Assembly (NCBI GenBank): GCA_964490125.1
Contig: CAZBAJ010000003.1
Span: forward strand, 33,941-97,940
Source: an uncultured Candidatus Saccharibacteria bacterium
Lineage (GTDB): Bacteria > Patescibacteriota > WWE3 > UBA101185 > UBA10185
Length of the DNA: 64,000 bases
Direction of reading: 5' to 3'
The translations under genes and the position numbers were made by a program. The notes under the pieces are model-generated. The model was given only the letters and a program-made list of their open reading frames with translations, had not been told where the DNA came from and did not search any database. Positions 53,253 through 56,227 of the stretch are shown piece after piece. How positions within the stretch are numbered: position 1 is the first letter of the stretch; each line of letters begins with the position of its first letter.

Positions 53253-54154
53253 GTCGTTTGTCCCCTGATTCTATTGTCGTACTATTACTACACAGGCAGG
53301 GCGTCAGCTCTTTGAAAAATTGTGGAAGAAAGTATAGGTAAGAAGACCTTTCTACTTTAAAGTCGTACAACAAGGTACCAGCAAAAAACGCTGATACCGT
53401 GGTCAAAAGACAAGTTCAAAAGTTGAAAGGCAAAAAGAATGTTTCTTTGAGAATTTGATCCTAGTTCAGGACGAACGCTAGCGGCGTGCCTAAGGTATGC
53501 AAGTCGAACGGTTTAATTGTCGCAAGATAGTTGGATAGTGGCGAACGGCTGAGTAACACACAGGAATCTACCCATAAGTAGAGGATAGTCTGCCGAAAGG
53601 CAGGGTAATACTCTATGTGGTCGCAAGACTAAAGCAGCAATGCGCTTAAGGATGAGCCTATGGCCTATCAGGTAGTTGGTGGGGTAATTGCCTACCAAGC
53701 CTATGACGGGTAGCCGGTCTGAGAGGACGAACGGCCAGAGGGGGACTGAGACACGGCCCTCACTCCTACGGGAGGCAGCAATTGGGAATTTTGCACAATG
53801 GACGAAAGTCTGATGCAGCGACGCCGCGTGAAGGATGACGGCCTTCGGGTTGTAAACTTCGATAAAGCACCGGCAAACTACGTGCCAGCAGCAGCGGTCA
53901 TACGTAGGGTGCAAGCGTTGTCCGGATTTACTGGGCGTAAAGAGTTCTGTAGGCGGTTGCGTAAGTTACAAGTTAAATCTTTGGGCTCAACCCAAAAACT
54001 GCTTTTAATACTGCGCGACTAGAGACATCTAGGGGACAGCGGAACTTATGGTGGAGCAGTGAAATGCGTTGATATCATAGGGAACACCAAGGGGGTAGCC
54101 AGCTGTCTGGGGATGTACTGACGCTGAGAGACGAAAGCGTGGGGAGTAAAACGG

Positions 54155-55192
54155 ATAGTAGTCTGGTCCCTCCTTTAAGGTGACTTTTAGGAGAAAAATT
54201 CGGCTATATGCTGGGACACCCGTACCACAATTAAGGGAAATATGTGGTTGACACCAAAATGTCGTAAAAGTATCTTGAACTACTAAACATATTCGGGTAA
54301 AATTCGTATATGTTCAGTGAAAATGTTTCAAGTGCGGACAATCAGCAGGAAAGACTGGGAACAAAAGTTCCCGGAATCCTCAGAGACTGTACGCCGAATG
54401 TCTCGGGTTCTTTTGGTTTACCTTCCTTATTGGGTCTACTTTATACTGATGGCTGTCTTTCAGCCAAAGGTAAAAGTTGGCGTTTATTCTTTGCCGTCAA
54501 GTCGTACAAACTGGTATGCGTGTTTGAAGAATGCGTCTATCGGTTGTTTAATGTCGACAAGGGCAGAGTGAGGGTAGCTAGAACAAAAGATGATTTATGG
54601 AGAGCGGTTGTAGACTCTAAAGAAATTGGAAACTACTTAACAAAAAACTTTGGTTGTTTTAGAACAGCAAAGTTTAAAGACGGTTCCTTACCGGGAATCA
54701 GGTTACCATTAACCTATCTTAGGCAATGTAACGGTATTAGAGAATTTTTGTCGTCCGCATTTAGTTGCGACGGCGGAGTTTCTTTTTATCCAGTTTACAG
54801 AACCGGTAGGTTTGGTGGAACTAGGTGGTTTAACAGAAATGTTTTTTTGGCGTGTATGCACCCTATGTTACTTAATGACTACAGTTTTTTGCTAAATTCA
54901 TTGGGTATAAAGGGGTCTGTGCTAAACGACAGGATAAAGATTTCTTCTAGAGAAGATATGTCCAACTTCCAGCGTGAAGTGGATTTTATCAAAGGTGTTG
55001 AGGTTACTAATCATTCCAAACTATGGAGAGGTTTAGATAAGTCAACACTATTAACATACGCTATAAATTCATATACAAACCGAGATAATGGTATAGCCCG
55101 ATCTCTATAGCGATATAGAGAGTTAGTGATAGTGTACTAACCTTTTGTCCTAATTAAAGAGTGACAAAAGCAACAAGCAGAAATATTACAAT
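54155..55192 (+). mobile_element. Intervening sequence or intron within the 16S gene (at the 'GGATTAGATACCC' ~785-800 region), carrying a homing-endonuclease ORF
   Basis: About 1036 nt absent from the canonical 16S alignment. The boundaries are ambiguous by 1-2 nt because 'at' is shared at the junction. Class (group I, other, or unspliced IVS) was not determined. Confidence 0.6.
54310..55110 (+). CDS. LAGLIDADG homing endonuclease (double-motif)
   Basis: Motif 1 'LLGLLYTDGCLS' and motif 2 'FLSSAFSCDGGVSF', about 100 aa apart, inside the 16S intervening sequence. 266 aa. Confidence 0.7.
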   Translation: MFSENVSSADNQQERLGTKVPGILRDCTPNVSGSFGLPSLLGLLYTDGCLSAKGKSWRLFFAVKSYKLVCVFEECVYRLFNVDKGRVRVARTKDDLWRAVVDSKEIGNYLTKNFGCFRTAKFKDGSLPGIRLPLTYLRQCNGIREFLSSAFSCDGGVSFYPVYRTGRFGGTRWFNRNVFLACMHPMLLNDYSFLLNSLGIKGSVLNDRIKISSREDMSNFQREVDFIKGVEVTNHSKLWRGLDKSTLLTYAINSYTNRDNGIARSL

Positions 55193-56227
55193 GTAGATAC
55201 CCGTGTAATCCACGCCGTAAACCATGCCTGCTAGATACCCGATTTATTTTAGGTGTCGAAGCTAACGCGTTAAGCAGGCCGCCTGGGGAGTACGGTCGCA
55301 AGGCTAAAACTCAAAGGAATTGGCGGGGTCCCGCACAAGCGGTGGAGCATGCTCTTCAATTGGCTGCTAACCCAAGAACCTTACCCAGACTTGACATGCA
55401 AGAGTTCTATGCCGGTGAAAGCCGGCAAATCCGCAAGGAGGCTTGCACAGGTGTTGCATGGCTGTCGTCAGCTCGTATCGTGAGACGTACCCTTAAGTGG
55501 GCTAACGAGCGCAACCCCTACCGTTAGTTGTATCACTCTAGCGGAACTGCCCTGGTAACAGGGAGGAAGGCGGGGACGACGTCAAGTCAGGATTGCCTTT
55601 ATGTCTGGGGCTAGAAGCATGCTACAATGGCGCGTACAGCGAGAAGCAAGATCGTGAGGTTGAGCAAATCTCTTAAAACGCGTCTCAGTTCGGATTGAAG
55701 TCTGCAACTCGACTTCATGAAGTTGGAATCGCTAGTAATCGGCGGTCAGCTATACGCCGGTGAATACGTTCTCGGGTCTTGCACACACCGCCCGTCACGC
55801 CAGCAAAGCTGGGGCTACCCTAAATCTCTGCATTAGTAGGGCTCACGGTAGAACCAGTGATGAGGGTGAAGTCGTAACAAGGTAGCCGTAGGGGAATCTG
55901 CGGCTGGATCACCTCCTTTCTAGGGAGAAACTTTAGCCAGTGAAAAATCGGATACTTTAATGACCAAGCGTCAAGCGAGTCCGTCTTTGAATCTGGCGCC
56001 GTCTGACCAAGAAACTCATAAGTCAAACGCGTAACCTCCATAACTCACGGAGGGTTGGGTAAGTTTTAAGGTAAGCTTCAAACCTTTAAATGAGCATTCT
56101 TTTTGCCTTTCTTCCTTTGAACAATTAAATTTAGGACGACTTTTTGGGCGACAAATTAGGAGTTTGACGATTTTATCTGTTGATATGTCGCACGATTTGT
56201 CCACTTTGTGCGATTTAACGGTGTTAA

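Follow-up and report, generated by a model that had tools for sequence, protein, structure and literature searches.

The 64,000-nucleotide (nt) stretch of DNA analysed here in full, called the window below (contig CAZBAJ010000003.1, positions 33,941 to 97,940), carries on its forward strand a complete bacterial 16S rRNA gene that is split by one large insertion. With the insertion included, the gene occupies 53443-55919 (2,477 nt; Rfam RF00177, 1259.7 bits, model positions 1-1533). Its exons sum to 1,440 nt, and both Rfam and blastn against Escherichia coli rrsH found just one insertion in it. The 5′ exon (53443-54156) ends in ...AACGGAU, with U54156 equivalent to E. coli U788, and the 3′ exon (55194-55919) begins with UAGAUACCCGUGUAAUCC, U55194 being E. 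coli U789 according to blastn. Between them lie 1,037 nt (54157-55193) that end in a guanosine and contain an open reading frame (ORF) of 266 aa (54310-55110, same strand), identified by Pfam, AlphaFold and homologue alignment as a two-domain LAGLIDADG homing endonuclease. We consider with good confidence that this insert is a mobile group I intron at site S788, equipped with a LAGLIDADG homing endonuclease, and that it belongs to a family spread across the Patescibacteria, or candidate phyla radiation (CPR).

The insertion site could be fixed to the nucleotide. E. coli rrsH 498-788 matches 53865-54156 and 789-821 matches 55194-55226. The GGAU that closes the 5′ exon is E. coli 785-788, and GGAUUAGAUACCC begins at E. 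coli 785. The insert thus falls precisely between U788 and U789, in the 790 loop of helix 24, a position called S788 in the usual nomenclature of rRNA introns. Removal of 54157-55193 yields ...ACGGAT|TAGATACCCGTGTAATCCACGCCGTAAAC, in which the block downstream of the insertion reads GTAATCC rather than GTAGTCC. The original prediction, made from the sequence alone, had recognized a 16S gene of about 2477 nt split by an insert of about 1 kb, and both of these points stand; its borders do not. It placed the gene at 53445-55921, 2 nt away from the Rfam borders, and the insert at 54155-55192, off by 2 nt and 1 nt at its two ends. Excision at those positions leaves ...ACGG|GTAGATACCC, and the conserved segment said to be restored is recovered with 54157-55193. 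The terminal G was overlooked because the borders had been displaced by 1-2 nt: the statement that no obvious terminal G was present is an artefact of that shift, as G55193 ends the intron and U54156 ends the 5′ exon.

The same architecture recurs well beyond the window. A protein search retrieved 111 homologues of the endonuclease, whose named sources are all Patescibacteria/CPR, and a genome scan gave 29 loci, in every one of which (29/29) an ORF homologue lies inside a 16S gene at the same break. The number of homologues and the constancy of the site are far beyond chance. The host is CPR/Patescibacteria-like. For the 7 loci that were checked by blastn against E. coli, each alignment that reaches the junction stops at 788/789. 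Introns were extracted from 27 loci, with lengths of 963-1,306 nt, and all 27 come after ...GGAU and terminate in G ahead of UAGAUACCC or UAGAGACCC; in the window this terminal guanosine (ωG) is G55193. The recurrence also bears on whether the split gene might be a 16S pseudogene or a chimera created during assembly. The assembly is of metagenome type, and an assembler could in principle make a chimeric join. Yet 29 genome loci and additional contigs from metagenomes show the architecture independently, the order BpsA_C/AdoMet_dc - FtsJ - 16S is shared with locus L030, the exons form a complete, high-scoring 16S gene and the ORF is intact, so that we regard such an origin as having a negligible chance of being correct.

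For a structural comparison, the ORF and the variable peripheral inserts were trimmed and the cores of 23 introns were aligned (mean column identity 73%). A group I structure was mapped onto this alignment and its pairs were counted, the controls being partners slid by 1-3 columns and 500 shuffles. Over the 58 pairs of P1-P10, 92.5% of the cells were paired versus 34-41% in the slid controls. Changes on both sides of a pair were seen in 30 of the 58 pairs (182 cells), and none of the 500 shuffles was as high on any measure. This covariation is carried by P2, P3, P5, P6, P8 and P9. P4 and P7 are almost invariant, as is expected for a catalytic centre.

All helices of the model lie on the forward strand. 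The internal guide sequence (54161-54169) was read from the sequence and agrees with the pairing of P1 and P10 across the 23 introns. Its GUCC (54166-54169) pairs with GGAU of the 5′ exon (54153-54156) to form P1 (89.6% paired), where U54156 and G54166 make the wobble at the 5′ splice site, a U.G in 22 of the 23 aligned introns. Its GUCU (54161-54164) pairs with AGAU of the 3′ exon (55195-55198) to form P10, a helix of 4 bp including one G.U (82.9% paired). P2 (54170-54193) is a hairpin with a GNRA loop (GUGA), in which 7/7 pairs show compensatory changes and which is present in both the minimum free energy and the centroid folds. P3 joins AUUCGGC (54198-54204) to GCCGAAU (54393-54399); it is 98.8% paired, has compensatory changes in 5/7 pairs and appears in the centroid fold. 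P4 (UGCUGG, 54209-54214, with UCAGCA, 54342-54347) is 100% paired. J4/5 then leads to P5 (CCCG, 54219-54222, with CGGA, 54335-54338), which is 98.9% paired with 2 covarying pairs and is followed by J5/4, CAA. The 3′ strands of P5 and P4 are supported by the pair count and are also found in the alignment to Rfam RF00028. P5 is prolonged by a peripheral extension (54223-54334) made of several hairpins, which holds the start codon of the ORF (54310) and varies in length in the homologues, where 27-119 nt were trimmed.

Downstream of this extension, the pair count and fold predictions delimit P6 (54348-54379), a hairpin closed by GGA...UCC and continued by UGGGAAC/GUUCCCG, whose closing pair covaries between A-U and G-C (12:10). 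The pair count also defines the 5′ strand of P7, GAGACUG with a bulged A54384 (54383-54389), whose partner is UAGCCC (55094-55099) and in which G54385-C55098 is the presumed guanosine-binding pair, as well as the 3′ strand of P3. P8 (UCUCGG, 54401-54406, with CCGAGA, 55080-55085) shows compensatory changes in 6/6 pairs. Its 3′ strand, J8/7 (UAAUGGUA, 55086-55093) and the 3′ strand of P7 align to the 3′ core of the Rfam group I model. P9 (55103-55120) is the hairpin CUCUAUA-GCGA-UAUAGAG, 99.4% paired with compensatory changes in 6/7 pairs; the ORF stops inside it, and its GCGA loop is unchanged throughout the intron family. Two peripheral hairpins, P9.1-like (55122-55141) and P9.2-like (55143-55169), were read from the sequence and vary in the homologues. 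Thermodynamic folding recovers part of this map: the centroid fold of 54149-54405 shows P2, P3, P6 and hairpins of the P5 extension (z = -3.0). A helix between GGCUAUAU (P3/J3-4) and AUAUAGUC (J8/7-P7′) was considered and dropped, as P3 covaries with 54393-54399 and the 3′ strand of P7 pairs with the invariant GAGACU that follows P6.

P10 varies together with the exon (columns 23/225): the 3 loci with the exon TAGAGACCC have the guide CUCU and the 17 loci with the exon TAGATACCC have AUCU, which amounts to a C versus A change in the guide. Compensatory change between intron and exon is direct evidence of selection on exon ligation, and this bears on the possibility that mature 16S rRNA keeps the insertion, with the loop of helix 24 enlarged by it. 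The 790 loop is an essential, universally conserved element that contributes to subunit bridging and to the P site. The insertion does lie in a hairpin loop, and an unspliced group I intron has reportedly been found in a 23S gene, that of Simkania (so the title of Everett et al., 1999). Nevertheless, retention is hard to reconcile both with the P10/exon changes and with the nature of the loop, and because most CPR genomes have just one rRNA copy (PMC11270868), loss of 16S function would kill the cell; we therefore give retention very little credence.

The 790 loop, as a functionally critical site, likewise speaks against removal of the insert as an intervening sequence (IVS) by RNase III-type processing without ligation, which would leave a fragmented 16S rRNA in the manner of the classical IVSs of bacterial 23S genes. 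Bacteria do have fragmenting IVSs, and some of the short insertions of CPR genes are suspected to be of this kind (PMC11270868). In the window, however, the energy of the duplex between the intron ends is -20.0 versus a shuffle mean of -16.1 (sd 3.2), a value matched or exceeded by 31/300 shuffles (z about -1.1), the z-scores of the family are around 0 and there is no end-to-end stem. Moreover, the full group I core is conserved and covaries, and P1 and P10 pair with both exons. As the intron ends are not complementary, this candidate was set aside, and we judge it very improbable.

The insert was also searched with Rfam models, a check that the original prediction had proposed. RF00028 scored 24.1 bits (E=0.001) over P1-P3′ and 16.3 bits over the 3′ core, below its gathering threshold of 50, which is an operational yardstick rather than a biological one, and no group II family was found up to E=10 in 54100-55260, so that a group II intron was ruled out. 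Of the 6 same-site loci scanned, four passed the threshold with matches over the full model (L013, 82.4 bits; L010, 67.6; L002, 61.5; L003, 57.7), while the introns of L030 and L028 fell below it. The covariation across the core, together with homologous copies that exceed the Rfam threshold, settles the intron class, which had been left open, as group I. As for an archaeal intron of the bulge-helix-bulge type, both junctions are already explained by the group I core.

The ORF matches its first description in full, with 266 aa and two LAGLIDADG motifs, and gives a Pfam LAGLIDADG_3 match. Motif 1 is LLGLLYTDGC (aa 40-49, 54427-54456) and motif 2 is FLSSAFSCDGG (aa 146-156, 54745-54777). In all 109 sequences compared, the two motif helices end in the acidic catalytic residues D47 and D154, and G48, G155 and G156 are invariant as well. 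The Pfam match (PF14528, 29.3 bits versus a cutoff of 22.5) covers aa 143-222 alone, which correspond to the second domain. The AlphaFold model, built with 109 homologues, is a confident one, with a predicted local distance difference test (pLDDT) score of 87.5 and a predicted template modelling (pTM) score of 0.85, and consists of two alpha-beta-beta-alpha-beta-beta-alpha domains; residues 1-25 and 31-33 are below pLDDT 50. The best Foldseek matches in the PDB were E-DreI, I-Tsp061I, I-AniI, the bI3 maturase and I-DmoI, all of them LAGLIDADG proteins with probability 1.0, whereas at the sequence level the ORF had nothing but noise among its PDB matches (best E=0.09, to AnkX). Pfam sees a single LAGLIDADG_3 domain where the predicted structure has two, the first at aa 37-135. 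Domain counts that rely on Pfam may therefore miss the second domain of such enzymes in the LAGLIDADG_3 subfamily, the 'non-domain N-terminal region' described in PMC11270868 being an example.

Most of the ORF sits in loop L8, and both of its ends overlap the ribozyme core. The first ~33 aa, predicted to be disordered, are encoded by the core from the 3′ strand of P5 to P8. The last ~10 codons cross the 3′ strand of P8, J8/7 and the 3′ strand of P7 into P9, where the stop codon UAG (55108-55110) is located. The peptides ADNQQ and SETT/PQRL, which look like conserved N-terminal motifs when the proteins are aligned, are the RNA segments AAUCAGCAGG and CAGAGACU (P4′/P6 and J6/7-P7) read as codons. 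The enzyme body is under purifying selection, with a dN/dS of 0.10 when the window is compared with L030 and of 0.17 when it is compared with L001. Over the first 38 codons dN/dS is ~0.5 with a lower dS, a pattern that fits constraint on the RNA and not on the protein. As judged from alignments, many endonuclease ORFs of this kind have been extended by gene callers across the ribozyme core that lies upstream (54310-54420 in the window).

Some features are peculiar to the window's copy or its closest relatives and count against the reading of the insert as a mobile group I intron. Beside the presumed G-binding pair, A54386 and C55097 form a mismatch. The equivalent P7 pair (columns 129-177) is A-U in 20 other introns and unpaired in 3, namely those of the window, L001 and L030. 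The 24.1 bits obtained against a threshold of 50, a threshold at which the closest relative, L030, fails as well, and a P10 of just 4 bp with one G.U, where many homologues have 7 bp, count in the same direction. Finally, the ORF reads through the ribozyme core (P5′, P4′, P6, P7, P3′ and P8) before it reaches the enzyme proper, and no start codon adjoins the folded part of the enzyme, so that translation would have to start at AUG 54310 in the P5 extension. The window's copy is therefore a somewhat degenerate-looking member of a described class.

These features could mean that the ribozyme of the window, L001 and L030 is no longer autonomous and needs the LAGLIDADG protein as a maturase, or else a host factor. 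The A.C mismatch occurs in exactly these three introns, P10 is weak, the window and L030 stay below the Rfam threshold that more distant homologues exceed, purifying selection on the protein is strong (dN/dS 0.10), and the maturases I-AniI and bI3 are among its structural neighbours. Continued homing would account equally well for the purifying selection, however, and the low Rfam score may merely reflect the long P5 and L8 insertions. In addition, two substitutions specific to the same clade add three distal pairs to P7 (U54390-A55093, A54391-U55092 and C54392-G55091), which may offset the mismatch. On balance, loss of autonomy seems to us rather unlikely. A narrower version, which takes together the mismatch, the minimal P10, the ORF fused through the core at both ends and the purifying selection, holds that in this clade the ribozyme relies on its own LAGLIDADG protein, which would then be a bacterial 16S intron maturase or, more radically, that the intron is poorly spliced or unspliced; we also think this unlikely. 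If it were true, a poorly spliced or unspliced intron would slow ribosome production in these organisms.

Under the interpretation that we favour, a mobile and self-splicing group I intron, the 16S precursor would be transcribed with the intron included, and the intron would adopt the P1-P9 core. Exogenous guanosine bound in P7 would attack the phosphodiester after U54156, which the guide GUCC would hold as a U.G wobble. The terminal G55193 would then replace the exogenous guanosine in the pocket, and the 5′ exon would attack the 3′ splice site with the assistance of P10, so as to ligate GGAU to UAGAUACCC and restore the universally conserved 790 loop. From the conservation of P1, P10 and ωG, we infer that splicing does take place. 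The specificity of cleavage and the mode of translation of the ORF are likewise predicted: the endonuclease, a presumed two-domain monomer, would cut intronless 16S alleles across GGAU|UAGAUACC (predicted target GAAACGGATTAGATACCCGTGTAG), and recombinational repair of the cut allele would copy the intron in, that is, homing. Indirect evidence for such cleavage is given by the strict conservation of the insertion site (29/29 loci) and by the existence of an intronless allele with 94.6% identity. The endonuclease may double as a maturase that helps folding.

The distribution of the intron was examined by scanning metagenomes for the junction that the window's lineage has in intronless form, AAACGGATTAGATACCCGTGTA, and at least 120 stretches were returned. 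Among the matches listed, the intronless allele L110, whose junction reads GAAACGGATTAGATACCCGTGTAGTCC, shares 94.6% identity with the window 16S, taken as spliced, over 1,226 nt. Intron-bearing relatives are equally close in 16S (L030, 94-98%; L001, 92-93%). Their introns are 82% and 74% identical to that of the window and have thus diverged faster than the exons. In the same relatives the 3′ half of the 16S gene is interrupted further, at 4265-4864 and 5804-6199 in L030, both with LAGLIDADG_3 ORFs, and at 4466-5364 and 5455-5761 in L001. The window 16S is without these extra insertions, and intron content therefore differs sharply at 92-98% 16S identity. The intron-plus/intron-minus pattern is consistent with mobility and is what homing plus loss would produce.

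Several other observations concern the homologous loci. The introns of L007 (nt ~135-412), L012, L017 and L020 hold inserts of 180-290 nt within P6, which may be nested elements or opposite-strand ORFs. L029 (CAIPPE010000259.1) is binned as Methylococcaceae, yet its 16S is just 68% identical to that of E. coli, and it is probably a mis-binned CPR contig. The intron-bearing loci L001, L005, L014, L016, L019 and L025 carry the label 'uncultured Candidatus Saccharibacteria', a group in which PMC11270868 reports no such introns, and these labels look generic.

Protein-encoding insertions in 16S genes are indeed an established peculiarity of CPR bacteria, as had been stated for this gene, and are already catalogued. 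As cited in PMC9698310, Brown et al. (2015) found that 31% of CPR 16S genes contain insertions and that most of the long insertions encode catalytic introns or ORFs. Tsurumaki et al. (2024; PMC11270868) reported insertions in 48% of them, with group I introns at several conserved sites. In the latter study, LAGLIDADG_3 proteins, of which there were 39, were confined to insertions in 16S genes, 35 of the proteins lying within group I introns, and target cleavage was demonstrated for another CPR LAGLIDADG enzyme, I-ShaI. The window intron shares with those LAGLIDADG_3 introns the host group, the gene, the intron class, the Pfam family and a highly conserved rRNA site, as well as a patchy occurrence with ORF-plus and ORF-less or intronless alleles. 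It differs in that, with 24.1 bits against the 50 required, the window copy would escape the Rfam-based classification of that study. Also, where PMC11270868 describes one domain and a 'non-domain' N-terminal region, our model places a second LAGLIDADG domain in that region, and the window enzyme has an extra extension upstream, encoded by the ribozyme core.

Other known systems resemble the window intron in part. S788 is also a classical nuclear group I site (PMC8395846), and the nuclear introns of fungi and myxomycetes such as Mcr.S788 (subgroup IC1) share the position after E. coli 788 and a group I ribozyme. They are found in eukaryotic nuclear rDNA, no LAGLIDADG gene is mentioned for Mcr.S788 in the passages of PMC8395846 consulted, and the likeness is one of site and intron class. 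Giant sulfur bacteria, which belong to another phylum, have self-splicing 16S introns (Salman et al., 2012) that PMC11270868 cites as the sole bacterial precedent outside the CPR; they too are group I introns, make the 16S gene longer and cause it to be missed in PCR surveys. The 23S intron of Thermotoga (Nesbo and Doolittle, 2003; PMC3984707) is likewise a group I intron of bacterial rRNA and has a LAGLIDADG ORF, whose endonuclease/maturase also stabilises the ribozyme (PMC3984707); it differs by its 23S location and its host. As for the protein, the archaeal enzymes I-DmoI and I-Tsp061I are the best structural matches (Foldseek E ~1e-7, template modelling score up to 0.67 normalised to the target) and are likewise monomeric two-domain enzymes from rRNA introns, with a sequence identity to the window protein of only 13-18%. 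Archaeal introns are excised by the bulge-helix-bulge endonuclease, not by a ribozyme.

The exons have features of their own. The 515F/530-loop segment GCAGCAGCGGTCATAC (53888-53903, forward strand) is divergent, as had been noticed from the sequence, and bears C526A and A532C in E. coli numbering, at window positions 53893 and 53899. The variant is not a sequencing error because relatives have the same changes: C526A is frequent in Parcubacteria-like loci and A532C is common to L001, L030, L011 and L021. These substitutions are lineage traits within one of the most conserved segments of rRNA. G505 is unchanged, and the pseudoknot pair G505-C526 would become G.A. Helix 17 is missing, as 8 nt at 53857-53864 replace the 65 nt of E. 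coli 433-497 (blastn) and 3 nt stand for 53 model positions in the Rfam alignment; its loss fits the reduced rRNAs reported for CPR.

Downstream of the 16S gene, the Rfam scan found no 23S or 5S rRNA within the window (55920-64000). A tRNA-Ile(GAU) gene, whose normal place is the 16S-23S spacer, is encoded on the reverse strand at 56228-56304, beginning 309 nt downstream of the 16S gene. It appears that the rRNA genes are rearranged or not linked. Further downstream, at 60861-63395, a RhuM-family gene on the reverse strand adjoins an AAA_14/DUF4143 ATPase gene on the forward strand, and the two may be mobile or defence-related cargo. Upstream of the 16S gene, there is a DUF3800 gene (51775-52416, reverse strand, Pfam) that L030 lacks in its syntenic region. 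Its 3′ end is overlapped, on the opposite strand, by an Rfam DUF3800-IX RNA match (51752-51819, forward strand), which is marginal (38.8 bits, threshold 36.8).

The window intron is real, but it is a further example of a well-documented and catalogued CPR peculiarity, and current understanding is unchanged by it. It does have practical consequences. The most widely used primer sites, 785F and 806R (E. coli 785-806), are split by the intron at 788/789 and the 515F site of the window 16S has two mismatches; amplicon surveys therefore miss such organisms or under-count them, and the 16S sequences that automatic rRNA callers give for such genes are over-long or broken. Annotators may use the exact borders, the helix map and the recognition that the N-terminus of the ORF is ribozyme core read as protein. 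For the family, the intron adds one more data point on homing introns spreading through the single-copy rRNA genes of CPR bacteria.

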